Origin: a virus
Taxonomy: Duplodnaviria; Caudoviricetes
Strand: one strand, 5' to 3'
IMG/VR virus record: IMGVR_UViG_3300042900_000746
Span: 69,871-133,870 of that record
Length of the DNA: 64,000 nucleotides
Below the pieces are notes generated by a model. That model worked only from the letters and a program-made list of their open reading frames with translations. It had not been told where the DNA came from and made no database searches. Shown one piece after another: positions 987-64,000 of this stretch (within the stretch, counting starts at the first letter, position 1; every line of letters starts with the position of its first letter). The position numbers and the translations under genes were made by a program.

Positions 987-3900
987 TTAATAATTGGCTG
1001 CCATTTCCGCATATGGATCCTGGGCTACATTGGGGATTCTATTATACATAGTAGTGTTGATATTGCCATTAACTAACCCTCCTGCAGCAGCATTAAATCT
1101 TCCGACGGTGTCTTGGTCTCCATATAAGTTTACTTTGTAACTGACGCCAGGATCATAACCTGGTCCTCCAAAGGTGCCAATTTGTGGAACTCGATTTGGA
1201 TAACCGCTTTCATAGGCGGATCCGCCTGGAAGTAGTGGGGGGCCAGCCATATCTTCGTGAGTCCTATCCCTGATCTCTGAATAGGCCAAGCTTCCTGCTA
1301 TTAAGCCTCCAATTGCCAGGGCGCCTTTCTTGATAGTAGGATTTTTGAAAAGATCTTTAAGATCTCCCATTTTTTCGCCTATTCTTTTATATACTGCTTT
1401 GTTCTCTACGAGTCCATCGTCTAGGTCTGTAATTGAATTAATGATATTATCAGCTAGTCCATCATCTCCAAATGCTGTTCTGGCAGCATCAGCATCTAAT
1501 ACACCAGCTGTTCCTAGGGTCCCTGGTGTTACATCATCTATTAGGCCTGTCGATGGATCAATATTTATTAATCCAGCTTGCGCTAGTTCATCTTTTTGCA
1601 TTTGAGCTCTTATTAATGCTACCTGATGATTAGCGTTTCCTCGTACCAAATCGTCAGCAATTTCATCTGACTGACCTAGTAAAGCTCTAAAAACATCATT
1701 TTGTTCGTTAGTTGTTTCGAAGATATCGAGCATTGTGTTCGTGCCGTCATCTATTCTTTGCTGGGCTTCTTTCACGGACTTTAGTCTTTTTTTAGCTTCT
1801 ATTTCCAAGTCCTCCATAGTGCCTTTATTTCCGAGGCTAGCTCTGACTTGATTGGCGTAATCTTGATCAAAAGATTCATAATGTTTTACTCTTCTGTACG
1901 TTCTAACATCTTGTATTGCTTTAGCTGCCCTTTCCGCGTCCTCTGGTAGCTCTCCTGCTTGCAGCGACGTTAAATGTCTTAAGCCTCCAATATCAACTCT
2001 AGTTCCAGCTGTTACTTTATCTATTGCATTTACTAAATCTACTGATGACATTCCGACTAATTGAGAAGCTTGACCTATATCTCTTAGTACCTTTTCGCCT
2101 ATATTATCCAAAAGTGCAGAGTGATTAAATAATTCAGTTTGATTCATTGTCTTAATGCTATCTGTGGTCGTATTGAATATCCTATCTAGCTCATCCTTAT
2201 GGGTAGCAATAATTGATCGAGCAACTGAATCAGCTTCCCTAGAAGTTCGTGTTGAAGATAAAATGTCGTCAGATGGAATCCTAGATATTGAGGACCTGTT
2301 CACAGAATCAAGATATGAAGAATATCGAACGCCTACGTCATGCACCCTGGATATTGATGCAAATGAGTGGTCTGCGTTTAGGCCAATTCTTTTTATTAAT
2401 TCCTCTTTAATCTTACTTGCATCATTAGAAGCGGATATATCTTTTAATTCTTTTAATGTTTTGTCTAAATCAACAGCTGTTGCAAGCCCTTGCCTTTGAG
2501 CGTCTTCCATACCTGTAATCATATTGTCTAATATAGATTTTGTGTCTGTGTCTCTAATTCTATCTTTCAGTAGAAACTCATCAATACCTAATAGAAGACT
2601 ATCGTCAGAGGAGCCAACTGCGCGCGAGAAGCCAATCATTTTTCCTAGTCCCTCGATGCTTTGTTCACCAAAAACGTCAAGCCCTAAATCTGCTCCAGAC
2701 AGTCCTAATTTTACTAGCGCTTTTTGAACTCCTACATCTTTCATATAATTAGCATTATCAGCTGAAGATAGAAGGCTTCCTACATTTTGAGATAGATTCC
2801 TCGAGGAGGCAAAACTTACACCAACGGAGGCGTCAATTGCCTCGTCCTGTGCTAGTAGGCCAATCTTATAGTTTTTCAGCATGTACTCTTTGGTTGCTTT
2901 AGAGGTACCTGCATCATTTAAGAATGCTTCATATTGATTCAATACACTGCCAACTGTCATCGATCTATTGACGTACACTCCAAGAATATCTCCACCTTCA
3001 ATAGCTTTTTTGACACTAAAATCATCTATTGCTGTCTGAAAAATTGCCCGCAGAGCCGGGTCTGTCTCATAGGTGGATTCCATCATCTTTAGCATTTCTT
3101 CAAAATCTGCGGCTTTTGAAAATTTATTTATCATTTTTTGATCAAAATTGTTTGCTCTCATTGTTTCCAGGAAATCATCCTTCATGTCAAAAGAACCTGA
3201 TTCTATAAAAGCTTTAAATATTCCTTCTCTAGTATAATCTGGTCGTTTGCTTAAATCTTTGACACTCAATGTAGAAGACCCATATCTTTTTATTTTTTCC
3301 GCTCTTTTTATGTCTAATTTTTGTATTGTAGTTACTCCACGTGCTTCTAAATCTCCAAAAACATTTACTATAGCTTGTTCAAAATCATCTATATGATTTA
3401 AGGATAGTGTTTTGTCTTTTTTGACAATTTGTCCTTTAACAGTTGTTTGGTCAGTATGTTTACCATCTAGTATGTCTTGAAGAATTCTGTACGTTTTTTT
3501 ATGGGCTGTATTGCTAGTTGATTGTGTTAAAGAGTCTAAGGATTTTCTAAATTCCATAACTGAAGAAGAATCTTCCCTACCCCCAAATAGACCCCTAATA
3601 GTATCTTGATCCATATTCATTCTAGCAAATATTAATTCTTCCGGGCCAGATGGCTGACGACTAATGTTGAACCCTAATCGAGTTAATCCTTGATTATCTT
3701 TATATGTTAAAACTTTTTCTAACACCTTGTCGTCTAAGTCGAATCCACCAAGAGCATGTCTGTATTTACCAATAGAGTCAGCCGGCAACATCATTTTATG
3801 GCCACTAACTCTAAACTTTAATATGTCGTGTTTTACATCGCCTAAACCCTCTATCGATATACGATCATATCCCCTGCCTTTATTCAGAATCATCTTTCCT

Positions 3901-5855
3901 TTTTCGGTTCCCATTAAAATTGCTTCACTGTCAATTGCAAAACGATGAGTGTCAGGAACAACCATTTGCATGAAGTCGCCCTTCATTCTAAATGCCTCTG
4001 TTGCAAAGAAGGTGTGCATCATGTTCATCATTGTTGGATTTTGCTTTGGACTAACGCCACTCCTCATCATGTCTAATATGGAATTAGCAAATTCTTTATT
4101 TCTCACCGCAGAAAGACGTGAATGTGATGGGAGATGACTTATATCGCGCTGTGATGCTTCTTCTAGCATCGCCCTTACCTTACGGGGCACTGTGCCACTG
4201 TTGATTGCGCTTTCGAATTCTCGAAGAACACTTTGGCCTCTTTGTTCCATTGCGTCCAGTGTTGCTCGATCAGCAAAAACTTCCGGATGAAAGGCAGCCG
4301 ATACTGGATCCGAATACACTAACTCGCGCCCTGAGCCCATTCCGCTTAAAGTTAATATATCAGTTTTTCCTGCAAAACCTAATTCTGGCTTAAATGCAAA
4401 TTTACTGGCAATCATTGTATATTTTTCTAATTGCTTGTCGAATTCTACTGCTTGACCAGCTGTTTTCAAATCTCCGTATTTAGCAGCGTGGCCTCTGATG
4501 GTGAACTGGTCAAGTCCTCCAGTAGCTTGAGCCCTAGAAGTCTGTCCTTTAATATTTTCCAACTGCTTTATTCTTATTGCTAGATCTTCCATCTCCTGAG
4601 AAGAGAGAGGTTTACCTAAACCTTGCTGCGCATTTTTTAATTTGTTTTTCAGAACATTTATTTCTTTGCGCATCGTTGTGTCGGTATATCCAGAGATCTT
4701 TTTCGCATTCATCAAATCAGATCCGTCGTACGCAAATTCGATATTGTCAAATAATTGTTTTACAAGACTTGCTCGTTTTTTGTCTCCATTAATAAAATTT
4801 GTTTCTAAATGTTTCATTAACTGATCACTAGCAAACTTGCCAGTTTTATTTGTTTCTTTGTATGCAAAGTCTGCGGAACGTATAACATTTTCAAATTCTG
4901 TTCTTTGCTTTTTAGTAAATTGGTTCAGTATGCTTCCAACAAAATCTTCTGCATCTACGTTCTTATAATAAGCCGCTAACTCCTTACCTCTCATGGTGTT
5001 TCCAAAAGCTTTTGTTTTATCAGTTCCTTGATAGGTCATTTTTTTCAATAACTCATACTGAGGATCTGGCACAAATATGGACGCGCTAAAAGTAGAACTT
5101 CCTCTTTTCCCAACAAAGTTTTCTAAATCACCACCTGCTAAAGATACTTCTCTTTCAGAGGCTAATGACCTAAATCTTTTGGGTATTTTCAACAAATGGT
5201 CGACTAGTCTTCCAGATCTAAGTTTATTTGGATTCTTGCTAAGAACCTTCTCGGACATTACCCCTGGATCCAACATATCATGACCTGTCACGGATAAGAG
5301 TAGATTGGACTGATAACTAGTTAGCATGTTACCTCCAGCTCTCATGGTTATCAATCTTGCGCTTTCATCATCAATAACAGTTATCCCCTGCAGCGAACCA
5401 CGTTTTCTCAGTTTGTCTATCTCCATAGCAATATTTTTAACTCCACCTTTGTCTTCATGGAGAGTTAACAAATCTACCTGCATATCTTTTATTGAACTTA
5501 CGTCAATTCCGGCATCTTGCAGTAATTTGATTTGGCTCGCTGAGAATGTCTGTGATTTGCTTTTTACGTCAGCCATTATTTCAGCCATACCACTTACTTT
5601 ACTGCCTAATCTTGACTGTCCTGGTTTACTGTCTAAATTGTTAAATTGAGAAATTCTTAGTGTACCTGCTCGAGCAAAGGCTCTGTCGATAGATTTGAAT
5701 GATTCACCAGTAGCACTCAAGACGAATTTTATTTCATCTCCATCAGGTTCTATCTTTATAGCATTACCCATGCCATAAGACGTTCTCATCAAAGCAGATC
5801 TTGCGGCAGCCATTCTCTCTGGAAGGGTGTCGTACATTCTATTAATATCTACCAT
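987..5855 (-). CDS. Large virion-module protein (1622 aa), putative virion-packaged two-barrel (QDE-1/YonO-like) DNA-dependent RNA polymerase
   Basis: Motifs FAYDGS (~4719-4736), QFTIRG...GDLK (~4460-4508), GGFDLDD (3729-3749) and SRQP (3651-3662) match in order and type those of the 61564..63921 protein; C-terminal hydrophobic Gly-rich segment KGALAIGGLIAGSLAY; start overlaps the upstream stop (TAATG). Confidence 0.65.
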   Translation of the reverse strand: MVDINRMYDTLPERMAAARSALMRTSYGMGNAIKIEPDGDEIKFVLSATGESFKSIDRAFARAGTLRISQFNNLDSKPGQSRLGSKVSGMAEIMADVKSKSQTFSASQIKLLQDAGIDVSSIKDMQVDLLTLHEDKGGVKNIAMEIDKLRKRGSLQGITVIDDESARLITMRAGGNMLTSYQSNLLLSVTGHDMLDPGVMSEKVLSKNPNKLRSGRLVDHLLKIPKRFRSLASEREVSLAGGDLENFVGKRGSSTFSASIFVPDPQYELLKKMTYQGTDKTKAFGNTMRGKELAAYYKNVDAEDFVGSILNQFTKKQRTEFENVIRSADFAYKETNKTGKFASDQLMKHLETNFINGDKKRASLVKQLFDNIEFAYDGSDLMNAKKISGYTDTTMRKEINVLKNKLKNAQQGLGKPLSSQEMEDLAIRIKQLENIKGQTSRAQATGGLDQFTIRGHAAKYGDLKTAGQAVEFDKQLEKYTMIASKFAFKPELGFAGKTDILTLSGMGSGRELVYSDPVSAAFHPEVFADRATLDAMEQRGQSVLREFESAINSGTVPRKVRAMLEEASQRDISHLPSHSRLSAVRNKEFANSILDMMRSGVSPKQNPTMMNMMHTFFATEAFRMKGDFMQMVVPDTHRFAIDSEAILMGTEKGKMILNKGRGYDRISIEGLGDVKHDILKFRVSGHKMMLPADSIGKYRHALGGFDLDDKVLEKVLTYKDNQGLTRLGFNISRQPSGPEELIFARMNMDQDTIRGLFGGREDSSSVMEFRKSLDSLTQSTSNTAHKKTYRILQDILDGKHTDQTTVKGQIVKKDKTLSLNHIDDFEQAIVNVFGDLEARGVTTIQKLDIKRAEKIKRYGSSTLSVKDLSKRPDYTREGIFKAFIESGSFDMKDDFLETMRANNFDQKMINKFSKAADFEEMLKMMESTYETDPALRAIFQTAIDDFSVKKAIEGGDILGVYVNRSMTVGSVLNQYEAFLNDAGTSKATKEYMLKNYKIGLLAQDEAIDASVGVSFASSRNLSQNVGSLLSSADNANYMKDVGVQKALVKLGLSGADLGLDVFGEQSIEGLGKMIGFSRAVGSSDDSLLLGIDEFLLKDRIRDTDTKSILDNMITGMEDAQRQGLATAVDLDKTLKELKDISASNDASKIKEELIKRIGLNADHSFASISRVHDVGVRYSSYLDSVNRSSISRIPSDDILSSTRTSREADSVARSIIATHKDELDRIFNTTTDSIKTMNQTELFNHSALLDNIGEKVLRDIGQASQLVGMSSVDLVNAIDKVTAGTRVDIGGLRHLTSLQAGELPEDAERAAKAIQDVRTYRRVKHYESFDQDYANQVRASLGNKGTMEDLEIEAKKRLKSVKEAQQRIDDGTNTMLDIFETTNEQNDVFRALLGQSDEIADDLVRGNANHQVALIRAQMQKDELAQAGLINIDPSTGLIDDVTPGTLGTAGVLDADAARTAFGDDGLADNIINSITDLDDGLVENKAVYKRIGEKMGDLKDLFKNPTIKKGALAIGGLIAGSLAYSEIRDRTHEDMAGPPLLPGGSAYESGYPNRVPQIGTFGGPGYDPGVSYKVNLYGDQDTVGRFNAAAGGLVNGNINTTMYNRIPNVAQDPYAEMAANY

Positions 5856-52382: not shown

Positions 52383-52425
52383 TTAATCTCCTTAAGATAT
52401 AATATATATATCAATTATACCATTA

Positions 52426-53967: not shown

Positions 53968-54063
53968 CCTACGCCTCTATCTTGAATTCTCGCGTTTGTT
54001 CGCTGAATTAAAGTAACCAGTACTATTACAGTATCTATATCCTTATAGAAGGAATGCTGTGTT

Positions 54064-54354: not shown

Positions 54355-54381
54355 ATTTCGCCCGGAACAAATAAGATATAT

Positions 54382-54428
54382 ACAAAAGAGGTGCTACCCC
54401 CTAAAGGGTAACACCTCTTTTTGTTTTT
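54382..54428. terminator. Bidirectional intrinsic terminator between convergent genes
   Basis: AAAAGAGGTG-TACCC...GGGTA-CACCTCTTTT with A and T tracts on both sides. Confidence 0.75.
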
Positions 54429-54442
54429 ATCACAGGGTGATA

Positions 54443-54661
54443 TTAGTAATCGTAACCGGATTCGTAGCCTAGCTCTTCCCACACTTGGTTTCCATATGAG
54501 GAACCATAGTCATTTGCAGACATAGCGAAGGATGTATTAGCCATGCCTCCGAAGGGGTTTACCCATTGGAAACAGTCAGGGCATCTTGTGTTGGCTCCTG
54601 AGAGGTCTTCATTGACGATATATTCTGTGCCACAGTGTGGGCAGTCCATATATGATTTCAT
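54443..54661 (-). CDS. Small zinc-ribbon protein
   Basis: CPHC...CPDC; AAAGGA RBS. Confidence 0.65.
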   Translation of the reverse strand: MKSYMDCPHCGTEYIVNEDLSGANTRCPDCFQWVNPFGGMANTSFAMSANDYGSSYGNQVWEELGYESGYDY

Positions 54662-55163
54662 GATTATTCCTTTGTGATTGTAAGCATGGGATGCTGGTTG
54701 TGTGAATCATTCCCTACTGGGAACGTCTTGAACTATATCTACTTGGCGGCGTCTTTGTCAACCTATGTTAGAAAATATTCCAAATTTTTTGGGGCGAATC
54801 TCTATATGGGAAAAATTATTAGGGAAAAATTTTTGGACTGAAATGGATGACAAGTGTTGCGGGCTTTTCTAATCTCGAGGGTCATTTGTTTCTAAACTCG
54901 AGGATGTATAAACATGTATAAACTTATTAAGGTAAAAACTAGGGAAAATTTATGGGGTGGATATAGTGAGTATATGTGTGTACTTTAATTCTTTAACGTG
55001 CCCACCCCCCCATGGGGTCATATGCTCTAGTAATAAACGACAATAAGCGGTCGTCCATACCCCTACGTATGGTGCAGGGACTCAGCATAAAAGGACAGCT
55101 TCGGTGAACCCATTACATCGTTAAAGAAATGGTTATCGCCCGACTAGAGGGCATAGAAAGGAT

Positions 55164-55673
55164 ATGATCATGAACGATCATGTTTTCAACCTGTTTATCA
55201 GGGTTATCAATGCAGCAAGTAATGGCAATTACGTCTACGGCAATGGAGCTAACTGGCACATTGTTGAAGGCGGAAAGGATGTCTTCATTGACACCCAATT
55301 GGGTACAGTAACAATGTCAAATGTTGACAGTACTGCAGTTAAAGGTACTGACATGCAAGCAGTACGTAACGTCAAGGCATACCTCATGGAGGCAGAAGCC
55401 ACCATGCAGACTGTTCACCTTGATGGCTATTACAACCGTAAGATGGCAGTAGATGCTATCTTGTGGGCAGACAAGAACAATGACTTGTTATACAGTAATG
55501 GTGGACAGTACAGTGTTCGTACAGGTGGTCTTGTGACTATCTGGGACATTGGTACAGCAGGACGCGTCATTGTTACTTACAAGGGTGCACATGCATCATT
55601 CAAACATCTGACAGCTAACAGTGGACGCACTGTTAAGTTGTCAGAAGATACGAAGAACTATATCCGTATCTGA
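55164..55673 (+). CDS. Hypothetical early-region protein (169 aa)
   Basis: GAAAGGA RBS; followed by a hairpin and the first repeat copy. Confidence 0.7.
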   Translation: MIMNDHVFNLFIRVINAASNGNYVYGNGANWHIVEGGKDVFIDTQLGTVTMSNVDSTAVKGTDMQAVRNVKAYLMEAEATMQTVHLDGYYNRKMAVDAILWADKNNDLLYSNGGQYSVRTGGLVTIWDIGTAGRVIVTYKGAHASFKHLTANSGRTVKLSEDTKNYIRI

Positions 55674-55704
55674 TTAAAGCAGTACCTAGTAGGGTAGGTA
55701 CGGA

Positions 55705-55760
55705 GAAGGTGGTTCCTCAGGATCTTATGATTCTGGGGAACTTCCTTTTTTGAGGATAGG
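55705..55760 (+). terminator. Repeat copy 1 (terminator plus putative promoter)
   Basis: GTTCCTCAGGATC-TTAT-GATTCTGGGGAAC TTCCTTTTTT GAGGATAGG. Confidence 0.8.
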
Positions 55761-55842
55761 TCATTGTCCTTTAGTAAGGTTCGCCATGGGCCAACGGATT
55801 CACTCGCGTTAAAGAGTAGACATGGAAGATGGTTTTACCATT

Positions 55843-55902
55843 CGTAATAATCACGTTCAATACGTTAAGTTGAACAAAGACATGTTTCTAGGAGGAATCA
55901 TG
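55843..55902 (+). promoter_or_regulatory. Structured 5' leader, copy 1
   Basis: Near-identical to 58161..58220, with a compensatory change in the GTTCA(A/G)...(T/C)TGAAC stem. Confidence 0.6.
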
Positions 55903-56127
55903 TTTGAAGTAATCAAGAAGTACAAGTACGCACTACTCATCTTGTTATTGGTATTCACACCAACAAGTAAGGTAGTGTTCGCGTTGTTCGGATTTCTTTC
56001 CGGATTCGTCAACTGGGGTCTTTTGATCCTGGTTGGCCTTGTTGTCTTGGGCATTAAGCTCAATAACAAGTTTGACCTGAGGGCAATGCTCTCAAGTCAG
56101 TCAGATGAGGAAGACTCCTTTATCTGA
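55900..56127 (+). CDS. Small membrane protein (75 aa, MFEVIKKYKY...)
   Basis: AGGAGG RBS; two hydrophobic segments. Confidence 0.75.
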   Translation: MFEVIKKYKYALLILLLVFTPTSKVVFALFGFLSGFVNWGLLILVGLVVLGIKLNNKFDLRAMLSSQSDEEDSFI

Positions 56128-56156
56128 TTAAGTAGGATGATGACCCATCCTGCTTA

Positions 56157-56216
56157 GAAGAAGTTGTTTCCCCTGGGGCATTTGCCTTGGGGGAAACTTC
56201 TTTTTTTGAGGATAGG
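56157..56216 (+). terminator. Repeat copy 2
   Basis: GTTTCCCCTGGGGCA-TT-TGCCTTGGGGGAAAC TTCTTTTTTT GAGGATAGG. Confidence 0.8.
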
Positions 56217-56255
56217 GGAAAGGCCCCTAACTCATTCCTTTGAAAGGGGATTATT

Positions 56256-56354
56256 ATGTCAGATAACATGTTCTTTATGATTGGCAACACCATATTTGTG
56301 GTGTGCTGCATAATGGCGATTGCGCCGTTATTCTTCTATAACAAGAAGAAGTAA
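56256..56354 (+). CDS. 32-aa membrane peptide (MSDNMFFMIGNTIFVVCCIMAIAPLFFYNKKK)
   Basis: Manually translated; GAAAGGGG RBS; fills the space between repeat copies 2 and 3. Confidence 0.6.
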   Translation: MSDNMFFMIGNTIFVVCCIMAIAPLFFYNKKK

Positions 56355-56359
56355 TTTAG

Positions 56360-56417
56360 AAAAAGTTGTTTCCCTGGGGTCTTCGGATCCTGGGGAAACT
56401 TCTTTTTTTGAGGATAG
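56360..56417 (+). terminator. Repeat copy 3
   Basis: GTTTCCCTGGGGTC-TTCG-GATCCTGGGGAAAC TTCTTTTTTT GAGGATAG; C(UUCG)G tetraloop. Confidence 0.85.
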
Positions 56418-56448
56418 ATCAATGGGATCAGTCCAGAAGGGGGTAACC

Positions 56449-56688
56449 ATGAAAATGGGAATCCACAAATTCAAGACAATAAAGGGTAATACCTTTGTTG
56501 TCGAAATCGGTCGCAGCATGACTTATGGTCATGTTGAGGCCCCGAATGGAGATTGGGTCGAGTTTTACGGCTCAATATCCATTCCTGAATTGGATGAGCA
56601 GGATGGTCAGACCATCATCGTGTTCACCCAGTTTGAATCGCAACGCCTTCGTGGCATTGCGATTCGTCCAGTCATTACCTTAGGGTAG
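56449..56688 (+). CDS. Hypothetical protein (79 aa, MKMGIHKFK...)
   Basis: GAAGGGGG RBS; start placed downstream of the repeat. Confidence 0.7.
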   Translation: MKMGIHKFKTIKGNTFVVEIGRSMTYGHVEAPNGDWVEFYGSISIPELDEQDGQTIIVFTQFESQRLRGIAIRPVITLG

Positions 56689-56741
56689 TGACTGGACAAA
56701 GGGCAGCGTTTTACCTTGCATACTAGCAAAGACGCATTATA

Positions 56742-56797
56742 GAAGAAGTTGTTCCCGGGGATTTAGGTCCCTGGGAACTTCTTTTTTTGAGGATAGG
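56742..56797 (+). terminator. Repeat copy 4
   Basis: GTTCCCGGGGAT-TTAG-GTCCCTGGGAAC TTCTTTTTTT GAGGATAGG. Confidence 0.8.
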
Positions 56798-56867
56798 CCA
56801 ACCGCGCCAGTCCAAGGGCATGAGTCACAGCCCTGCCAACACCGGCAAAGTGACAAAGGAGGTCGAG

Positions 56868-57158
56868 ATGAAACTCGATATCCAATGGTGGGCAACCACC
56901 AACAATTCCATTGTCGGGTTAATTCCCGTCAGTGGAAAGACTGTTGTGATCCGGGAGGGTCATGACGGTCACTTCACCGGCTACCAGGCCGATGAAGTCA
57001 CCCTGCAGCACCTAACTCATCAGGACAATATCTTTGCCCTGTATGCAGTTGTGCGCGCGGGGCAAAGGGTTGAAGAGATTCGTCTCCTCAATCCTTTATT
57101 CCTCGATCTACTGGGAATTGACCCAGTTGAGATCGTGGACTCTACTACCTTTATCTGA
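56868..57158 (+). CDS. Hypothetical protein (96 aa, MKLDIQWW...)
   Basis: AAAGGAGGT RBS. Confidence 0.7.
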   Translation: MKLDIQWWATTNNSIVGLIPVSGKTVVIREGHDGHFTGYQADEVTLQHLTHQDNIFALYAVVRAGQRVEEIRLLNPLFLDLLGIDPVEIVDSTTFI

Positions 57159-57170
57159 GGTAGTGGGGGA

Positions 57171-57227
57171 AGAAAGTTGTTCCTCGGGATTTTCGGATTC
57201 CGGGGAACTTCTTTTTTTGAGGATAGG
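57171..57227 (+). terminator. Repeat copy 5
   Basis: GTTCCTCGGGATT-TTCG-GATTCCGGGGAAC TTCTTTTTTT GAGGATAGG. Confidence 0.8.
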
Positions 57228-57268
57228 CAACAAGCCCGTCCATAATACCTCGGAAAGGAGGTGAAACA

Positions 57269-57550
57269 ATGAAGGCAAAGCCAGCAAGGCGAGTCTACGT
57301 CGCAAGGCGTATTCTCGTTGCGTTGATTGTTGTTCTTCTGTTCTTTGTTGCTCGCGGAATCCACCGTGAAGCAACAGAGCCCGCTTACACATGTGATGTG
57401 TCTGCGGCGTTCGTAGAGCAGGGGGATTCAATCTGGACTTTGTTAGAAGATCACTGTGAAGGCGATCTGACTTCCGCAAGATACTTTGTTACCGGTATCT
57501 ACGGAACGAAGGTTGTTCCTGGTCAGTTGATTCTTTTAACAAAGGACTGA
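57269..57550 (+). CDS. Membrane-anchored LysM-like protein (93 aa)
   Basis: Basic N-terminus, TM helix ILVALIVVLLFFVA, then VEQGDSIWTL...VVPGQLILL LysM-type motif; AAAGGAGGT RBS. Confidence 0.7.
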   Translation: MKAKPARRVYVARRILVALIVVLLFFVARGIHREATEPAYTCDVSAAFVEQGDSIWTLLEDHCEGDLTSARYFVTGIYGTKVVPGQLILLTKD

Positions 57551-57562
57551 TCACAATCAACC

Positions 57563-57621
57563 AAACTGCCACGACACGGGTGGCCAAGAAGTAGTGACTC
57601 TTGGGAACAGAAAAATCACTA
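57563..57621 (+). ncRNA. Candidate structured 3' RNA element (two hairpins plus pseudoknot), copy A
   Basis: GCCAC/GTGGC stem, CAAGA/TCTTG stem, GGAACAGAA, and loop TAGTGA pairing with downstream TCACTA. Confidence 0.5.
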
Positions 57622-57680
57622 AAGAGGTTGTTTCCCTGGGATCTTCGGATCCTGGGGAAACTTCCTTTTTTTGGGATAGG
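57622..57680 (+). terminator. Repeat copy 6
   Basis: GTTTCCCTGGGATC-TTCG-GATCCTGGGGAAAC TTCCTTTTTTT GGGATAGG. Confidence 0.8.
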
Positions 57681-57721
57681 CATTCGGCCTCCCTATATCA
57701 CCCCAGAAAGGAGGTGAAAAC

Positions 57722-57961
57722 ATGGGTGTCTCCATCTTCCTCGGAAACGAGGATCGAGCCTCTTGGACGTATGGTCATTTTGACCATGTCCTTCGCGCAC
57801 TAGGTCTTCCTAGTCCGGAGGAGTCCGATTGGGCTGGATCGATGGACCCAGAACATCTCGTTCAGAATCTCCACAAGATTGTGAATGCAGATGATCGGGA
57901 ATTCATAGCGGAAATCGCTATCGAGTCCCTGAGGTCTGGATCCTCGATCTCCTGGTCATAA
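57722..57961 (+). CDS. Hypothetical protein (79 aa)
   Basis: AAAGGAGGTG RBS. Confidence 0.75.
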   Translation: MGVSIFLGNEDRASWTYGHFDHVLRALGLPSPEESDWAGSMDPEHLVQNLHKIVNADDREFIAEIAIESLRSGSSISWS

Positions 57962-57973
57962 CCAGGCGATTGG

Positions 57974-58030
57974 ACACCGCCACTTGTAAGAGAGTGGCCG
58001 AGTTGGCGCAACTTGGGAACAGAAGCGCTA
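57974..58030 (+). ncRNA. Candidate structured 3' RNA element, copy B
   Basis: GCCACT/AGTGGC stem, CGAGTT/AACTTG stem, GGAACAGAA, and loop GGCGC pairing with GCGCT. Confidence 0.5.
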
Positions 58031-58090
58031 AAGAGGTTGTTTCCTCTGGGATTTTCGAATCCTGGAGGAAACTTCCTTTTTTGAGGATAG
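58031..58090 (+). terminator. Repeat copy 7
   Basis: GTTTCCTCTGGGATT-TTCG-AATCCTGGAGGAAAC TTCCTTTTTT GAGGATAG. Confidence 0.8.
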
Positions 58091-58160
58091 ACCATTGTCC
58101 TTACTGGTAGCCAGAATGCAGGCATAAAACCAGTCCGGGTGACGCCGGTTCATCAGTCAA

Positions 58161-58220
58161 CGTAATAATCACGTTCAGTACGTTAAGCTGAACAAAGGCA
58201 TGTTTCTTGGAGGGATCATG
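58161..58220 (+). promoter_or_regulatory. Structured 5' leader, copy 2
   Basis: Near-identical to 55843..55902 and ends at the RBS and ATG. Confidence 0.6.
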
Positions 58221-58778
58221 TCACATAGTAAAACAGCAGCAGAGTTTGCTGCAAAGGTCCACGAAAGGTTGGCTCCTGCAAGGGAAGCCTACTATGAGTG
58301 GCTCAAAGGGGTGTACCAGTTATGGAATACCCAGTTCTTCAGCAAGAAGTCGGTCACCCAGGATGTCCTGGACCGTTCCGACAAGGGTGGGGATGAAGAT
58401 CCCTGGATGACATTTCAGAGCACACTCTGTACTGTAATGTCAGAGAAGTACCCGCGATTTGGGCTTCTCATGAATCCCGATGAAAACGGTCAGTCCATTC
58501 TGGATGGATTCATCCTGGATTTGGATGAGCCAGGCGACTGGTACATCAAAGCCGAAACAAACCCAGAGACTGGGATCACTTGGGTGGCTTTGTTTGTAGA
58601 AGACAAGGACCCATATGACCCGTGGGCAGGACAAATGTGGAATATCCCATTCCACTTCAACGTGAAGTTCACGCAATTTGGGTACCAGGTCCTTGGGGCT
58701 TGGTCTAACGGGTATAAGAGTGATGAAGAATGGGAGGTGTGGGGTGAGCCTGAGTTTTCAGGCTACCAGTTTCCCTGA
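58218..58778 (+). CDS. Acidic Trp-rich hypothetical protein (186 aa, MSHSKTAA...)
   Basis: GGAGGG RBS. Confidence 0.75.
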   Translation: MSHSKTAAEFAAKVHERLAPAREAYYEWLKGVYQLWNTQFFSKKSVTQDVLDRSDKGGDEDPWMTFQSTLCTVMSEKYPRFGLLMNPDENGQSILDGFILDLDEPGDWYIKAETNPETGITWVALFVEDKDPYDPWAGQMWNIPFHFNVKFTQFGYQVLGAWSNGYKSDEEWEVWGEPEFSGYQFP

Positions 58779-58798
58779 GTTAATTATTATTAGTAGTT

Positions 58799-58863
58799 AA
58801 GTTGTTCCCCGGGGATTGGCAGAAATGCTGGTCCTCGGGGAATCTTCTTTTTTTGACAATAGG
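58799..58863 (+). terminator. Repeat copy 8 (variant TTGACAATAGG)
   Basis: TTCCCCGGGGATTGGCA-GAAA-TGCTGGTCCTCGGGGAA hairpin plus T tract. Confidence 0.75.
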
Positions 58864-58897
58864 CCCCCGAACAACCGAAGGGGTCGGAAAGGTTGTC

Positions 58898-59215
58898 ATG
58901 TTGGTAAACTTAACTCCTCACGAGGTAACACTCGTGAATGATCAGGGTGATATTACCCTGGTCATCAAGCCGGAGGGAACTCCTGCTCGGTGCGCAGTGA
59001 AGCGAGAGATCGCATTCATTGCGGACGGTATTAGTGTCAATAAGAGTGTGTTCGGAGAGGTCGTTGGCCTTCCGGAGCCCATTGAAGGCACTTGGTATAT
59101 TGTTAGCCGGATTGTAGCAGAAGCTGCACAACGTTCAGATCTTCTGGTTCCGGATGAAACAGTTCGGAACCAAGAAGGTCAGATTGTTGGTTGTAAGTCA
59201 TTTGCAACAATCTGA
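58898..59215 (+). CDS. Phage hypothetical protein with NLTPH motif (105 aa)
   Basis: MLVNLTPHEV, GLPEP, YIVSRIVA, DLLVP and VRNQEGQIVGC pattern that I recall from a widespread phage family of unknown function. Confidence 0.75.
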   Translation: MLVNLTPHEVTLVNDQGDITLVIKPEGTPARCAVKREIAFIADGISVNKSVFGEVVGLPEPIEGTWYIVSRIVAEAAQRSDLLVPDETVRNQEGQIVGCKSFATI

Positions 59216-59232
59216 GTTAATTATTAACAATT

Positions 59233-59288
59233 GAGTTGTTTCCCCTGGGGTCTTTGGGCCCTGGGGGAAACTTCTTTTTTGAGGATAG
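59233..59288 (+). terminator. Repeat copy 9
   Basis: GTTTCCCCTGGGGTC-TTTG-GGCCCTGGGGGAAAC TTCTTTTTT GAGGATAG. Confidence 0.8.
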
Positions 59289-59334
59289 ACCATTGGGGTC
59301 AGTCCACAACTCACCAACGAAAGGAGGTGAAATA

Positions 59335-59511
59335 ATGGCTCCCACCTGGGACTCGGTTGGTGTTTGTTCGCTTTGCGGACAGGACATAACTGTAGAAGAG
59401 GTGGTGGATCACTGGTACAAGCTCCCTACAGGGGAACTTGGAACAACGGTTCACCGAACCAGGGATGAATCCATGCCGCTCGTTCACGGGCAGTGCATCG
59501 ATTCTCTCTGA
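59335..59511 (+). CDS. 58-aa Cys/His zinc-binding protein (MAPTWDSVGVCSLC...HGQC)
   Basis: AAAGGAGGTG RBS; CxxC and HxxC. Confidence 0.65.
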   Translation: MAPTWDSVGVCSLCGQDITVEEVVDHWYKLPTGELGTTVHRTRDESMPLVHGQCIDSL

Positions 59512-59525
59512 GACCCTCGTCCCAC

Positions 59526-59586
59526 AAACCGCTACTTGAAAGAGAGTAGCCGGGGTGAACACTCCTACCCTGGGAACAGAATGGAG
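59526..59586 (+). ncRNA. Candidate structured 3' RNA element, copy C
   Basis: GCTACT/AGTAGC stem, CGGGGT/ACCCTG stem, GGAACAGAA, and loop CTCC pairing with GGAG. Confidence 0.5.
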
Positions 59587-59593
59587 ACAACTC

Positions 59594-59656
59594 GTCCCTA
59601 CCCTGGGGATCTTCGGATCCCTGGGGTAGAGACCCTACCTTTTTTTTGAGGATAGG
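59594..59656 (+). terminator. Repeat copy 10
   Basis: CTACCCTGGGGATC-TTCG-GATCCCTGGGGTAG, then CCTTTTTTTT GAGGATAGG. Confidence 0.75.
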
Positions 59657-59685
59657 CCACCCAGGCCAGTCCAGGAAAGGAAACC

Positions 59686-59850
59686 ATGGCTCTTAACAAA
59701 ACCATGGTTGCTATCCACATCGCCTTGTTCTTGGCGATGTTCGGTGTAATTACAATGGCTAGCCCAGGCTGGTTCATTGTGTTTATGCTGACTGTCATAA
59801 CGGGTTATTGCGTTATTGGCGGTTGGATCGCAGCAAAAAGCGAGGACTGA
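59686..59850 (+). CDS. 54-aa two-helix membrane protein (MALNKTMVAIHIALF...)
   Basis: Manually translated; GAAAGGA RBS; fills the space between repeat copies 10 and 11. Confidence 0.65.
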   Translation: MALNKTMVAIHIALFLAMFGVITMASPGWFIVFMLTVITGYCVIGGWIAAKSED

Positions 59851-59875
59851 CAAACCTCGTTGTCCATGAAACCGC

Positions 59876-59937
59876 TCCTTACCCTGGGGATCTTAGGATC
59901 TCTGGGGTAAGGACCCTACCCTTTTTTTGAGGATAGG
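59876..59937 (+). terminator. Repeat copy 11
   Basis: TCCTTACCCTGGGGATC-TTAG-GATCTCTGGGGTAAGGA, then CCCTTTTTTT GAGGATAGG. Confidence 0.75.
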
Positions 59938-59966
59938 CCACTGGGGCCAGTCCACGAAAGGGAAAT

Positions 59967-60269
59967 ATGAAAGTCAAGAACAAGTGGTGGGTCTCATACA
60001 AGATCCGCCAAGTTGCCAAAGCCCGTGAAAGGGCAATGGTCAACCCAGCCACCGTCAAGCAGCTATGCTTCATCGCATTCCTGCTCGAGTTCACAATCGT
60101 CAATGCCGAAGAGGCAAAGACCATTAAGACAATGGTCCACAATGGAGTGGATTTCTACTGGGCCAGCAAGACCATCAAGTACCTGCAACAGAAGCCTTAC
60201 CGCTTCACATTTGCGGAGTACAAAGTCAAGAATGCCAATTGGGACTACGCTAATAAGCGTTGGTTCTGA
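59967..60269 (+). CDS. Basic hypothetical protein (100 aa)
   Basis: GAAAGGGA RBS; ATG 30 nt after the repeat. Confidence 0.7.
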   Translation: MKVKNKWWVSYKIRQVAKARERAMVNPATVKQLCFIAFLLEFTIVNAEEAKTIKTMVHNGVDFYWASKTIKYLQQKPYRFTFAEYKVKNANWDYANKRWF

Positions 60270-60292
60270 TAGTAGATAAGTAAAAAAAAAGT

Positions 60293-60343
60293 AAGGTGCA
60301 GATCCTCTCGTTTGGGATCTGTGCCTTCTTTTTTTGGCATAGG
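60293..60343 (+). terminator. Repeat copy 12 (variant TTGGCATAGG)
   Basis: AAGGTGCAGATCCT...GGGATCTGTGCCTT hairpin plus T tract. Confidence 0.7.
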
Positions 60344-60402
60344 CGTTAGGCCTCTAGCTACAGTTAACTAAATCTGTTGGAAAATTAGTAAGAAAGGAAA
60401 TC

Positions 60403-60666
60403 ATGTCAGTTAATGGACCATGGGATGAAGATCCTATGTGGGTTCCGGATCTTGAAGATTCGGAGCTTGCTAATACATGTTTCAGGTGTCAAGAATTGGA
60501 AGCTGAATTGGAATCATGGAAGCTCACCGCTTCTATGTGGATGGCGGAGGCTGAAGCGCAAGCGGAGTCTGACTTGGCACGCTTTGAACTTCAAGAGCAG
60601 TACATGCGCCAACAAGAAAAGGAAGCTGAAAGAAAGAGAAGGGAATACGGCAAACCAAGTAACTAA
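60403..60666 (+). CDS. Coiled-coil hypothetical protein (87 aa)
   Basis: GAAAGGA RBS; CxxC followed by a Glu-rich helix. Confidence 0.7.
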   Translation: MSVNGPWDEDPMWVPDLEDSELANTCFRCQELEAELESWKLTASMWMAEAEAQAESDLARFELQEQYMRQQEKEAERKRREYGKPSN

Positions 60667-60681
60667 GTAAGTAAGTAAGTA

Positions 60682-60737
60682 GAAGGATTGTTCCCGGGGA
60701 TTTCGGTCCTCGGGAACTTCCTTTTTTTGAGGATAGG
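60682..60737 (+). terminator. Repeat copy 13
   Basis: GTTCCCGGGGAT-TTCG-GTCCTCGGGAAC TTCCTTTTTTT GAGGATAGG. Confidence 0.8.
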
Positions 60738-60766
60738 CCACTGGGGTCAGTCCAAGAAAGGAAATC

Positions 60767-61258
60767 ATGTCAGTTAATAATCAATTCCGGCAAAGGCTGG
60801 ATGTGATCTCGAAAGTAGAGATTGTATCTGGCTGCTTGGAGATTACTTCAAGCAACGCTGCAATATTACTTGCAGGACCACTGACGTATGGACAATACAT
60901 TAGTGTGTTTTCGGGTAAGAAGTATTCGTTTGTTGGAACATCGCAAGATGGCGCTATCATCGATGCATTTATGCACGACGGTAGTGCCCGTGACAATGGT
61001 GGGTATGGCGGCGACGCTTTTGAACTCACGATGAATGATGGATCTCACCGAGTTTTGGTCGGTCCATGGTCTAGCCGACCATCAGTCCATAGCGTTAACA
61101 GTGGAATTTCTTTCACGGAAGTCCGAGTTAACGGTAGGCTGGCTTACTTTTCTCAGGCATTCATTGCGGCAATTGTTCACGAATTCAACATCAATGCAAC
61201 AATGACCGTACGAGTTGATGAAGACGGTGAGATATATCTTGAGTTAGTAAGTAAATAA
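60767..61258 (+). CDS. Hypothetical protein (163 aa)
   Basis: GAAAGGA RBS; GGYGG and GPWSS motifs. Confidence 0.75.
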   Translation: MSVNNQFRQRLDVISKVEIVSGCLEITSSNAAILLAGPLTYGQYISVFSGKKYSFVGTSQDGAIIDAFMHDGSARDNGGYGGDAFELTMNDGSHRVLVGPWSSRPSVHSVNSGISFTEVRVNGRLAYFSQAFIAAIVHEFNINATMTVRVDEDGEIYLELVSK

Positions 61259-61278
61259 GTAAGTAAGTAAAGTAAGAC

Positions 61279-61330
61279 GAGGTAGTCCCTGGGGAGAAAT
61301 CCCTGGGGACTTTCCTTTTTTTGCCAATAA
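61279..61330 (+). terminator. Repeat copy 14 (degenerate, TTGCCAATAA)
   Basis: AGTCCCTGGGGA-GAAA-TCCCTGGGGACT hairpin plus T tract. Confidence 0.75.
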
Positions 61331-61427
61331 ATCGTTGGCCCTTAAACAGGAGGTAGAAATGTAATGAATACCATTGTTAATACTCAATTGCTTAATTTAG
61401 TAATAATAGACCCTTCTCTACCCCCCG

Positions 61428-61474
61428 CCTAGGAGGATAGCCATGGACCTTAGGTTCCTTTTTTTGACGATAGG
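61428..61474 (+). promoter_or_regulatory. Repeat copy 15 (weak hairpin, TTTTTTTGACGATAGG) upstream of the RNA polymerase-like gene
   Basis: Core motif retained and followed by CCATTGGCCTTTAGT, as in copies 1 and 7. Confidence 0.6.
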
Positions 61475-61563
61475 CCATTGGCCTTTAGTCACACGTGAGG
61501 TTCCACGTCAGGGCCAACAGTTTGTGTGTATCTGTACAAAAACACACAGAAAGGGAGGGAGAG

Positions 61564-63921
61564 ATGCCGTATTTCCATGGCATTGTGGTCCTCGCTGGAA
61601 GGTGGCTTCGGCTGCTGACTGGTGCGGCTCACGTCCCGGGTACCAACATCAAAGAAGAGTTTCAGGGAGGACAATACGTCCCAGCGTTCCTGGAGCACTT
61701 CTGGGGTGGGAAGTACCGCGTCGAGGTGCGTAAGCTGTTCAGCCGTAAGGTTGGATCAGTGGAAAGCGCACCAGCGGTGACCAATAAGGAGCTGTTCTCT
61801 AGCGAAGTAATTCGTTGGAGCAACTCCTCGGACCAGTACATGTTGCGCATTAAGGGCAATGATGGCTGGCTTGCTAGCTTCAAGGAAATCGGTCTTCTGA
61901 TCGGTAACTCAAAGAAGATGAGCAAGAGGTTAGTGGAGCTCGTGCGCATGTCGTGCATGTGGCTTCATATACCTGAAGAGGAAGCCCTTGAGGTTGACGT
62001 CATCGATCACAAAGCGTTGGGCATGCCTGATGAGTTTGTGGACGGTGCGACGTTCATCACCCGTGGTTTGGCCATCAAGTGCGTGAAGTCGAATACTTCG
62101 GCAACACGTGCTTGGAGGGCCAAGATGATCTGGGACATTCGCAATGGCAATCTTGTCGTTGTGCAGTTCCGGATGCTCTGTGCACTGGGAGAGATCAAAG
62201 GTAATGCTGTGATCACTCCTCGTCGCCAGATGCGAGGCTACGAAGTTCGGACATTTGCTCCGAATATCAAGGCTGAGATCAAGACCACAGGATGGCAATG
62301 GGTCACATTGGAGCCGTCTTACGGGACGATTCCGGTGAAGTCGGACGATCTGACACATTCCATTTACTGGGATGTTAAGGGTCTGTATGACCACGACTCA
62401 CTCCTGGCATGCCTGGAATCCTCTTTGAAGCAATTCAAGGAGGACTTGGTCGCTGGCAAACGCTCTGAGTGGATGGAGAAGCTCGCTGAAAATAGCGGGA
62501 ATATCCTACACGAGGAGTCAGAGGTAAAGTATGCAAAGGATCGTGGCCTAGTTGGCAGGATTCAGCATGCGGTTGCTCAACTTAGCAAGTTGGGTGTACC
62601 TCTACACGCCAGTCAAACCCTGATGTTCCTCTCGGTCAATGGTTTGCGAAAGCAGCTGTTGGGCGACAATCGTCAGGGTGAGGTATGGACAGACAAGTCT
62701 CGTCACTGGTTTCCAGTGTCGTGGGCTTATGCTGCCCATGTCTATACCAAGGAAGTCTTGGAAATCGGTGGGTTTAAGATGCCCGCTGGTAACCATGGCT
62801 TCTTCCATGAGGCTACCCACAGCTTCGTGGTACCTGGCCAGTTCTTGAAGGATAACTTCGAGAACTGGGGAGGCCCGGACCTAGATGACACAGTTAAGGT
62901 GCATGTGCGCCGTGTGTTGGATAGTAAGGGCAAGGTCAAGTTGATGGGAATTGTCATGCGCAATCCGAATGATTTCGGTGAGTATGCGATGATTCCGATT
63001 AAGGAGACCGGACCGGTATTCCACGACTATGGTGCTGAGCCCCCGCTGGTGGATCTGCAGGAACTATCTAGTAAGGTTCCGCAGTTTACTAAGCTGAAGA
63101 AGCACCTGAACATCGGATCACTTCCGGCGATCACTAATCCACGTAAGCGTGGTGACGTGTTCTCGTTGGAGGATGAGTCGGCTGTTCGGCTTGCATCACA
63201 AGCTTTTCCACCAGGAATGGGCGGAACGGTCATCCCAAAGATGATCTGGTACGCTCAGTTCGGGAAGCCCATTGAGGAGTTGGTTGCAACTAACGAAGAC
63301 ATCGTTGATGTTCTTCAGCAGGGGCAAGCTTCTCTGGAGGATGTGCAGTTGATCAAGCAATGGATCGACAACACATTCACCACAATGGGTGAAAGGCTCA
63401 ACTGGGAAATGGACCGCTTCTGGTTCATGACCCGGATGCCAGCACCATTGGCAGAGGTGTGGGAAACCTCATCCGAGGAAGCATCGCCTTGGGTCACACT
63501 CCATAAGGAGCGTGAGAACCTTGTGCGTCAGTACATTAAGGAAATGACGGATTGGCTGAATAGTCAAGTCGTTATGCCTGAAGTGCTGGAGCAGATCAAC
63601 TGGACTCCAGAAGAGCGTGCAAACGCTTGGAAGAAACTCCAGAAGATTAAAGAGGTTCATCAAGCAGCTCGAAACAGTAGTCTCACCTGGTGCGACTACT
63701 TTGTAGAGCTGATGACCAAGAGTGATGAAGAGTTTGGTGAAGAACGTACTGATCGTAAGATCTTATGTTTAGCTCACCAAGCTATCCTCGCGAAGGCTCA
63801 AACGCCAGGAGCCAACCATGACCAGTGGTTATTCTCGTTCAACGCTAAGAGCGAAATACAACCGTACATGTTCTATGTACGTGCTTTGAAGCGTGTTCAA
63901 GACGGGACTTACAACTGGTAA
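61564..63921 (+). CDS. Putative single-subunit two-barrel (QDE-1/YonO-like) RNA polymerase, ~785 aa
   Basis: FVDGATFI (62035-62058) resembles RdRP FSDGxGxI; QFRM...GEIKG (62164-62202) resembles QIRxxGxKG; GGPDLDD (62869-62889) resembles GGDLDGD; MRNP (62956-62967); GGGAGG RBS before ATG 61564. Confidence 0.7.
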   Translation: MPYFHGIVVLAGRWLRLLTGAAHVPGTNIKEEFQGGQYVPAFLEHFWGGKYRVEVRKLFSRKVGSVESAPAVTNKELFSSEVIRWSNSSDQYMLRIKGNDGWLASFKEIGLLIGNSKKMSKRLVELVRMSCMWLHIPEEEALEVDVIDHKALGMPDEFVDGATFITRGLAIKCVKSNTSATRAWRAKMIWDIRNGNLVVVQFRMLCALGEIKGNAVITPRRQMRGYEVRTFAPNIKAEIKTTGWQWVTLEPSYGTIPVKSDDLTHSIYWDVKGLYDHDSLLACLESSLKQFKEDLVAGKRSEWMEKLAENSGNILHEESEVKYAKDRGLVGRIQHAVAQLSKLGVPLHASQTLMFLSVNGLRKQLLGDNRQGEVWTDKSRHWFPVSWAYAAHVYTKEVLEIGGFKMPAGNHGFFHEATHSFVVPGQFLKDNFENWGGPDLDDTVKVHVRRVLDSKGKVKLMGIVMRNPNDFGEYAMIPIKETGPVFHDYGAEPPLVDLQELSSKVPQFTKLKKHLNIGSLPAITNPRKRGDVFSLEDESAVRLASQAFPPGMGGTVIPKMIWYAQFGKPIEELVATNEDIVDVLQQGQASLEDVQLIKQWIDNTFTTMGERLNWEMDRFWFMTRMPAPLAEVWETSSEEASPWVTLHKERENLVRQYIKEMTDWLNSQVVMPEVLEQINWTPEERANAWKKLQKIKEVHQAARNSSLTWCDYFVELMTKSDEEFGEERTDRKILCLAHQAILAKAQTPGANHDQWLFSFNAKSEIQPYMFYVRALKRVQDGTYNW

Positions 63922-63949
63922 CCAGTCACTAAAGGTGACACCAATGTAG

Positions 63950-63981: not shown

Positions 63982-64000
63982 TGAATTAGTAGTTGTATTG

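Follow-up and report, generated by a model that had tools for sequence, protein, structure and literature searches.

Composite terminator/promoter cassettes, the promoter-early stem-loops (PeSLs), have been described in T4-like phages (Arbiol 2010, PMC2839356; Comeau 2014, PMC4122927). As set out in these reports, small repeated stem-loop and promoter units surround single small open reading frames (ORFs) in hyperplastic early regions and mark points of gene gain, loss and exchange among close relatives, and their promoters are of the sigma-70 type (-35, N17, -10), read by the host enzyme (PMC4122927). In the Thermus phage P23-45, according to Chaban et al. 2024 (PMC10770324), the virion RNA polymerase gp96, fused to the tape measure protein, reads AT-rich pre-early promoters, that of the gene for the second, non-virion polymerase (gp64) included, and 7 termination sites share a conserved 26-nucleotide (nt) motif. 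Early promoters of phage N4, as described in PMC4496689, carry a template-strand DNA hairpin; it is centred at -11 and consists of a 3-nt loop on a stem of 5-7 bp. For the single-subunit two-barrel phage RNA polymerases (kin of YonO, crAss gp66 and eukaryotic RNAi polymerases), promoters and terminators are almost unknown: the YonO promoter is described as undefined (PMC5467207), and the report on gp66 gives no common motif upstream of early transcripts (bioRxiv 10.1101/2020.03.07.982082). Here we describe 15 elements in a 64,000-nt stretch of viral DNA (the window; IMG/VR record IMGVR_UViG_3300042900_000746), which forms the final 64 kb of a linear contig of 133,870 bp, itself estimated to be 63% complete. 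In these elements a terminator-like hairpin (hairpin 1) is followed by a T tract and a conserved box, and the array that they form ends at the gene of a predicted two-barrel RNA polymerase.

We put at roughly 50% the probability that the element is a terminator fused to a start module for a phage two-barrel polymerase, with transcripts starting where T tract and box meet and bearing a hairpin (hairpin 2) at their 5' end.

The elements resemble two kinds already known, PeSL cassettes and P23-45 pre-early units. As in the published PeSLs, stem-loop and putative promoter units are repeated between single ORFs and coincide with exchange breakpoints; unlike them, the units here have no -10 element, their box varies by clade and forms a 5' hairpin, and the array contains a phage polymerase gene. 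With P23-45, as far as its published description goes, the locus shares a polymerase gene of the QDE-1-like two-barrel type set among small early genes, a second virion-associated polymerase encoded with the tail genes (here a candidate only), repeated start motifs (putative here) that are not of the sigma-70 type (AT-rich for the virion enzyme in P23-45) and a conserved motif at termination sites (again putative here) in the early block, these motifs being likened by description. It differs from P23-45 in that stop and start are fused and share the T tract, in that the box is part of a 5' hairpin, in the catalytic loop (DxDD here, DxDxD there), and in that the virion candidate is a separate 1622-amino-acid (aa) gene, with a weakly supported fold, lying unfused beside a 2212-aa gene; moreover, the phage of the window is a jumbo-sized myovirus and P23-45 a siphovirus. 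The polymerase belongs to the same broad single-subunit two-barrel family as YonO of SPbeta and gp66 of crAss-like phi14:2, with the difference that a strong multi-copy candidate motif is present here. New in this analysis are the reading of the box as part of hairpin 2, the copies without hairpin 1 and the strand controls. The candidate start/stop unit is compact and comes in dozens of natural variants, across polymerases that are 95% to 36% identical, and the compensatory changes built into the variants make tests of recognition, termination and the 5' hairpin directly designable in vitro. The idea of PeSLs, regulatory cassettes as gene-shuffling joints, may also extend to an early region driven by a phage polymerase.

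Fifteen elements with a terminator-like hairpin

The 15 elements lie at 55,708-61,490 of the window, exclusively on the plus strand, and split the early region much as the initial annotation had proposed for about 15 such units. The exact sequence TTTTGAGGATAG has 10 copies in the window, on the plus strand only and all within 55.7-60.7 kb; allowing up to 2 mismatches gives 22 matches against 9.07 +/- 2.84 in 100 shuffles (0/100 reach 22), and across the whole 133,870-bp contig the exact form yields 10 forward, 0 reverse and 0 control matches. Variant boxes occupy the remaining 5 copies. Nothing similar to the elements was seen in the rest of the 134-kb contig outside the array, and an Rfam scan of 52000-64000 returned 0 matches at E up to 1. 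The distance from the T tract to the next start codon is 37-54 nt in 10/15 elements, close to the 30-50 nt anticipated for most copies, and 67, 79, 98, 135 and 148 nt in the others. The heptamer CAGTCCA, said to follow often, is present downstream in 6/15.

Element 1 (55708..55771) comprises hairpin 1 at 55708-55745, T6 at 55746-55751 and the box GAGGATAG with hairpin 2 at 55752-55771. Element 2 (56166..56233) has hairpin 1 at 56166-56197, T7 at 56201-56207 and box plus hairpin 2 at 56208-56233, and element 3 (56368..56434) has hairpin 1 with a TTCG loop at 56368-56399, T7 at 56403-56409 and hairpin 2 at 56412-56434, ending in the GTCC of CAGTCCA. Listed in the order of hairpin 1, T tract and hairpin 2, element 4 (56751..56813) follows with 56751-56778, T7 56782-56788 and 56791-56813, and element 5 (57179..57241) with 57179-57208, T7 57212-57218 and 57221-57241. 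Element 6 (57626..57693; 57626-57665, T7 57666-57672) carries the variant box GGGATAG within 57673-57693, and element 7 (58035..58102) consists of 58035-58076, T6 58077-58082 and 58083-58102. In element 8 (58804..58897), hairpin 1 with a GAAA loop (58804-58843) and T7 (58848-58854) precede the variant box GACAATAG and, at 58855-58897, an outer helix GACAAT/GTTGTC around an inner hairpin. Elements 9 (59238..59305; 59238-59271, T6 59275-59280, 59283-59305), 10 (59594..59672; 59594-59633, T8 59640-59647, 59650-59672) and 11 (59876..59953; 59876-59913, T7 59922-59928, 59931-59953) are followed by element 12 (60293..60359; 60293-60327, T7 60329-60335) with the variant box GGCATAG and hairpin 2 at 60336-60359, and by element 13 (60685..60753; 60685-60721, T7 60722-60728, 60731-60753). 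Element 14 (61281..61339) has a GAAA-loop hairpin 1 at 61281-61315, T7 at 61316-61322 and the variant box GCCAATAA with hairpin 2 at 61323-61339. Element 15 (61445..61490), 98 nt 5' of the polymerase gene, is a start module with practically no terminator hairpin: a weak hairpin at 61445-61457 precedes T7 at 61459-61465 and the box GACGATAG with hairpin 2 at 61466-61490.

Two further observations concern the array. After element 14, an ATG-TAA and then a 22-codon ORF (61365-61433) stand in place of a normal cassette gene, a layout repeated in the related locus L009. Three elements have yet another repeated motif, the third, YTGGGAACAGAA, which sits past the stop codon and ahead of hairpin 1 (regions 57590-57625, 57995-58030 and 59555-59590), with small hairpins in front of it.

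Hairpin 1 is strong in 14/15 elements, with folding free energies of -19.1 to -31.1 kcal/mol and z-scores of -2.2 to -6.7 against mononucleotide shuffles; that of element 15 is weak (-9.3 kcal/mol, z -0.2). All 15 hairpin sequences are distinct, so that the proposed variation in sequence with pairing kept is borne out, and the loops are TTCG in 6/15 and GAAA in 2/15, the two types that had been named. In the 14 strong elements hairpin 1 lies 13-82 nt past the upstream stop codon, and the T6-8 tract begins 0-8 nt past the stem (0-4 nt in 12/14). In the polymerase clade of the window (clade A), the lower stem of hairpin 1 is conserved and bears a bulge of 3 nt. A scan for terminator-like sites in 52-64 kb gave 39 sites versus 10.6 +/- 3.0 in shuffles, with these hairpins as its top-ranked rows. 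The anatomy of an intrinsic (Rho-independent type) terminator, a GC-rich hairpin and a U tract on the sense strand past a stop codon, is thus found in 14/15 elements.

Relatives were collected by polymerase-based scans, which returned 27 viral loci with polymerases of 95-36% identity; 21 were examined together with the window after near-duplicates had been dropped. At least one copy of a strong plus-strand hairpin with T tract and box lies near the polymerase gene in 16/21 of these loci; by the same filter L027, L028 and L033 gave no copy, and L021 and L032 gave degenerate forms only.

All 15 copies of hairpin 1 in the window are more stable on the plus strand, where their folds have 217 pairs, 38 of them G-U; the minus-strand folds have 174 pairs and 1 G-U, in agreement with the claim that many of the wobble pairs are valid on the plus strand only. 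With the relatives included, 93/97 distinct copies are more stable on the plus strand (G-U 203 versus 15), and random segments from the same regions gave only 256 versus 137 and 676 versus 435. Because this asymmetry exceeds the random-segment control, hairpin 1 is an RNA structure, or at least one of the plus strand only.

The box, hairpin 2 and modules without hairpin 1

The box varies by polymerase clade in a maximum-likelihood tree. Clade A, the window and its closest relatives, has GAGGATAG with the variants GCCAATAG and GACGATAG; L015 has ACGGATAG or GCGAATAG, two neighbouring clades have ATGGGTAG, and the clade at 36% identity has ATG(A/G/C)CTAG. Common to all clades are the T tract, about 5 bases, TAG and a purine. 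In clades B and C (L016-L031) the box is longer, ATGnnTAG-N4-TAG-RYC, with the second TAG 8 nt past the first; read from its ATG, it would be a 4-codon mini-ORF with no ribosome-binding site in front.

Folding 48 nt after each T tract reveals a second hairpin, which starts 0-2 nt past the tract and has the box as its 5' arm. In clade A, hairpin 2 usually has the form GGAT-A-(4 bp)-5-nt loop-(4 bp)-A-GTCC, with CAGTCCA as the 3' arm. In the 36% clade and in L015, pairing runs unbroken through the same nine positions (GACTAGAGG/CCTCTAGTC and GGATAGAGG/CCTCTATTC), and in the clades with ATGGGTAG an inner hairpin is enclosed by GGGT paired with an ACCC downstream of it. Variant boxes within one genome are likewise matched by their complements (GCC/GGC, GACAAT/GTTGTC, GAC/GTC). 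A helix of at least 4 bp at offset 0-2 is present in 66/94 distinct modules versus 403/1000 random windows, and the first base past the T tract is a purine in 87/94. In a practically ungapped alignment of 45 distinct modules with a fixed geometry of nine pairs and a 5-nt loop, 66.7% of cells pair versus 56.2% in shuffles (0/500 reach this), double changes number 55 versus 28 and the covariation score is 0.325 versus 0.198 (0/500), figures that are inflated by related rows and by a geometry derived from them; sliding the partner lowers pairing to 25-44%.

A start downstream of GATAG, as the initial annotation had it, is not supported by this arrangement, in which box and CAGTCCA belong to the 5' and the 3' arm, respectively, of one covarying hairpin. 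A start at the G of TAG, considered for a loose resemblance to T7-type promoters, was dropped on the same ground, as the box pairs with a downstream complement.

T7-8, box and hairpin 2 also occur without hairpin 1, in the window and in relatives. In L023, where a block of minus-strand ORFs gives way to the plus strand, such a module (2813, plus strand) is the first unit, and a Shine-Dalgarno site comes after it; an AT-rich stretch of L023, comparable to the non-coding stretch at 54700-55160 of the window (see below), ends in this kind of hairpin-less box. Hairpin-less modules stand directly 5' of the polymerase gene in L015 (7296), L024 (7245) and L026 (6727), and effectively hairpin-less ones do so in the window (61459) and in L009 (9899); further copies are found at L026 3431, L021 253, L031 6387 and L009 14309. 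Because these modules recur without hairpin 1, the T tract is part of both the terminator and the downstream module, the central inference of the initial annotation.

Cassette exchange and the polymerase genes

Comparison of the window with L009 and L010 reveals one hairpin joined to differing leaders and genes, and one leader joined to differing hairpins, with the breakpoints in the T tract/box. The window and L009 polymerases are 95% identical, yet within the compared regions (L009 7300-16000 and L010 2500-12500) no more than 2 of the cassette ORFs of the window find a homologue in L009 (49% and 58% identity). Conversely, ORF 59254-59511 is 96% identical to an L010 gene, while the window and L010 polymerases are only 59% identical. 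Cassette genes are thus swapped at the T tract/box.

In L009 the array goes on past the polymerase gene (12629-15140, 18515), where the contig of the window stops, and its outer boxes turn AT-rich (ATCATAG, ATGATAG, AAAATAG and ACAAATAG); these may be a weaker or a different class. Among the matches listed in scans of viral contigs for exact 14-mers, almost all are single and probably due to chance; only L079, a 70-kb viral contig, has four, exact T6-GAGGATAG 14-mers within 1.2 kb on one strand, and it is probably another member of the clade of the window.

The array is closed in the window by a 785-aa gene (61564..63921, plus strand), in line with the phage polymerase that had been invoked. 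Its product has 130 metagenome homologues, and GGxDxDD (D439, D441, D442), a variant of the metal-binding DxDxD signature, is invariant in 32/32 aligned homologues. An AlphaFold (AF2) model built from the homologue alignment has a predicted local distance difference test (pLDDT) score of 89.5 and a predicted template modelling score (pTM) of 0.85; its Foldseek matches include QDE-1 (E 1.4e-7), the P23-45-type gp64/gp62 structures 8f72 (E 3e-4) and 8f5m (E 2.6e-3), and plant RDR2. ESM Atlas features agree with a polymerase fold. By sequence, tblastn against GenBank phages gave no match, and a profile search of PDB sequences from the alignment (A1) gave chance-level rows only. On its modelled structure, the 785-aa protein is a single-subunit two-barrel (QDE-1/YonO-like) RNA polymerase.

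A second protein, of 1622 aa (987..5855, minus strand), adjoins the 2212-aa gene (5855-12493, minus strand) in the tail module and is a candidate virion RNA polymerase and a possible reader of the elements. LGGFDLDDK and RQP (GGFDLDD...RQP) are invariant in 22/22 aligned homologues. BLASTP aligns it with the 785-aa protein over the GGFDLDD motif at E 0.018, hhalign gives E 0.0062 with a probability of 6%, and QDE-1 fills the top 8 Foldseek rows of its model (pLDDT 60.6), though only at E 0.028-0.14. A wide search with the model of its core (VIA-align) was dominated by a helical hairpin, residues 78-154, and is uninformative.

Possible readings of the elements and the surrounding contig

For the fusion of a terminator with a start module we propose the following course of events. 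Hairpin 1 and the U tract would end and protect the upstream mRNA. The T tract with its preceding C and the conserved 8-mer would then form a start module that host sigma-70 does not read; its reader may be a phage two-barrel polymerase, by analogy with P23-45 most likely an enzyme that arrives with the virion (the 1622-aa candidate), or else the 785-aa enzyme. Transcripts would start at or beside the first purine past the T tract, and the box, as the 5' arm of hairpin 2, would become part of a 5'-terminal stem-loop shielding the mRNA ahead of the Shine-Dalgarno site; if hairpin 2 is RNA, the 5' end must lie at or before that purine. Because every unit would carry its own start and stop, single genes could be exchanged by recombination in the shared T tract and box, an exchange that the comparison with relatives shows.

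Several points weigh against this proposal. Two-barrel single-subunit polymerases are not known to terminate at hairpin and U signals. A start right past the T tract leaves only a low-information pyrimidine tract as the upstream part of the promoter, and specificity would then rest in the initially transcribed box, which is unusual. The clade-specific box follows the descent of the phage as a whole and is not specific evidence of polymerase-promoter co-evolution, because such congruence is expected for any feature of related phages. The strand bias of hairpin 2 (65 versus 23; G-U 89 versus 44) does not exceed the background (249 versus 141); since random segments show an equal bias, this asymmetry cannot tell RNA from DNA, and its use as evidence for RNA was dropped. 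No box lies upstream of 55164-55673, the gene that precedes the array, and the 1622-aa candidate reader is weakly supported. Finally, the sole RNA run, metatranscriptome X1 (0.06 share of words), yielded 18 short assembled contigs without recorded strand or transcript 5' or 3' ends and is evidence neither for nor against starts; among the 8 pieces listed, three are identical to the window (57302-57476, 57452-57602 and 63288-63491).

The main rival, which we consider unlikely on balance, is RNA processing. The array would give a single long transcript, made for instance by a phage polymerase insensitive to hairpin and U signals, and a host or phage endoribonuclease would cut the U tract or the bulged lower stem of hairpin 1, leaving monocistronic mRNAs capped 3' by hairpin 1 and 5' by hairpin 2. 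RNase III processes the T7 early region in a comparable manner. A single-stranded U tract between two conserved plus-strand hairpins would suit such cleavage, as would the conserved lower stem and 3-nt bulge in clade A, and the box, lying inside an RNA-type helix, is probably transcribed; no information-rich conserved element precedes the T tract, and gene 55164 with its 460-nt upstream region could carry a single promoter. However, a GC-rich hairpin with T6-8 is the anatomy of a terminator and would be needless for cleavage or stabilisation alone, a clade-specific 8-mer is unexpected for host cleavage of the RNase E or RNase III type, and in L023 a hairpin-less module heads the array beside a divergent junction, where a start signal is needed.

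A bolder form of the proposal, and a quite unlikely one, couples termination with reinitiation: a virion-borne polymerase present in few copies, perhaps held at the DNA entry point, would stay on the DNA and start again from the same T tract. Each short mRNA would be freed at the U tract, giving a series of hairpin-capped monocistronic mRNAs during genome entry. If so, QDE-1/YonO-like phage polymerases would have in the T tract, N5 and TAG their first promoter class to be defined outside P23-45, with recognition partly via an initially transcribed hairpin.

We give little chance to a DNA hairpin promoter of the N4 kind, in which hairpin 2 (or hairpin 1) would be extruded from supercoiled DNA and read by the injected polymerase, and transcription would start downstream of hairpin 2. 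The account of the N4 promoters in PMC4496689 describes a small hairpin with conserved and variable stem positions and an injected polymerase as the reader, and hairpin 2 similarly combines conserved with freely covarying positions; QDE-1-like phage polymerases are reported to favour single-stranded templates in vitro (bioRxiv 10.1101/2020.03.07.982082), and for hairpin 2 the strand asymmetry leaves RNA versus DNA unsettled. For hairpin 1, the suggestion of the initial annotation that it might act in DNA fares poorly: it forms badly on the template strand, where its G-U pairs become C-A mismatches (38 versus 1 in the window). Hairpin 2 has variable loops of about 5 nt instead of the fixed 3-nt loop of a template-strand hairpin, and in compact copies the Shine-Dalgarno site abuts its 3' end, leaving almost no leader. 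In addition, the N4 enzyme belongs to the T7-like and not the two-barrel family, and the same account describes only three promoters, none fused to a terminator (PMC4496689).

An ordinary host promoter is highly improbable. TTGAGG would be a -35 element after a terminator, a construction shared by the published PeSLs (PMC4122927), and variant boxes do read TTGACA, TTGACG, TTGCCA or TTGACC across the T tract/box junction. However, a sigma-70-like scan of 52-64 kb gave 14 sites versus 16.4 expected, and only 1 (57217) starts in an element; the -10 element that should lie 16-18 nt downstream (-35, about 17 nt, -10) is missing in 14/15, just as no consistent TANNNT had been noticed at its distance from the TTGA. 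In compact copies the Shine-Dalgarno site sits where the -10 element and the start would fall, the boxes of clades B and C (ATGGGTAG and ATGRCTAG) have no TTG, and the conserved TAG and hairpin 2 would be left unexplained.

There is only a very small chance that hairpin 2 is a palindromic operator of a dimeric phage regulator or that the elements are cassette recombination sites: inverted repeats with a 5-bp spacer and exchange at the elements would fit, but the inner stem changes freely while staying complementary, with G-T pairs, a misfit for sequence-specific protein binding, no integrase-type gene was noticed in the array (without a systematic search), and homologous recombination between repeats explains the exchange. 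Integron sites of the attC type were also considered and dropped, since the orientation of the arms misfits and no integrase was noticed, again without a systematic search.

The remainder of the window is occupied by other modules. Structural genes on the minus strand fill 1-52 kb (GC content about 0.31-0.46) and include the large terminase (40463-42319), the portal (30386-32056) and tail sheath genes (16273-17547 and 18559-20178); with a tail sheath, the phage is a jumbo-sized myovirus and not a siphovirus. Plus-strand genes run from 52.6 kb on, beginning with RecA (52622-53761), and the GC content climbs to 0.47-0.51 across 56-64 kb. Megablast of 55000-64000 against GenBank phages gave no match, and PHROGs and Pfam gave nothing for the 785-, 1622-, 2212-, 169-, 192- and 163-aa proteins. 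PF00623 and PF04542 have no match in the 134-kb contig, which is an estimated 63% complete; PF00940 has none there either, but this model is also silent in all control genomes and so is uninformative.

At the divergent junction of minus- and plus-strand genes (52070-52180), a CATATAAGTATATAG-like repeat stands in three AT-rich copies, after which (A)AGGGGGG occurs three times; the site might serve as an origin, as a packaging or end sequence, or in regulation. A hairpin with an A run on one side and a T run on the other (54386-54420) separates the convergent ORFs 54064-54354 (plus) and 54443-54661 (minus) and looks like an ordinary bidirectional terminator without a box. The 460-nt non-coding stretch at 54700-55160, 5' of the gene that precedes element 1 (55164-55673), has direct repeats (TTCTAA[T/A]CTCGAGG twice, TGTATAAAC twice and a GGGAAAAATT-like sequence three times) and lacks T tract and box. 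T-TACTAT(T)A is found about 24-54 nt (mostly about 40) 5' of minus-strand start codons in late intergenic regions, at least 8 of them. This motif came from a k-mer search of those regions, its genome-wide counts not being enriched by eye, and is a candidate late promoter of another class; examples are found on the minus strand of the window at 32079, 25637, 21435 and 17598 and in the contig at 35049, 10683, 9594 and 7310.

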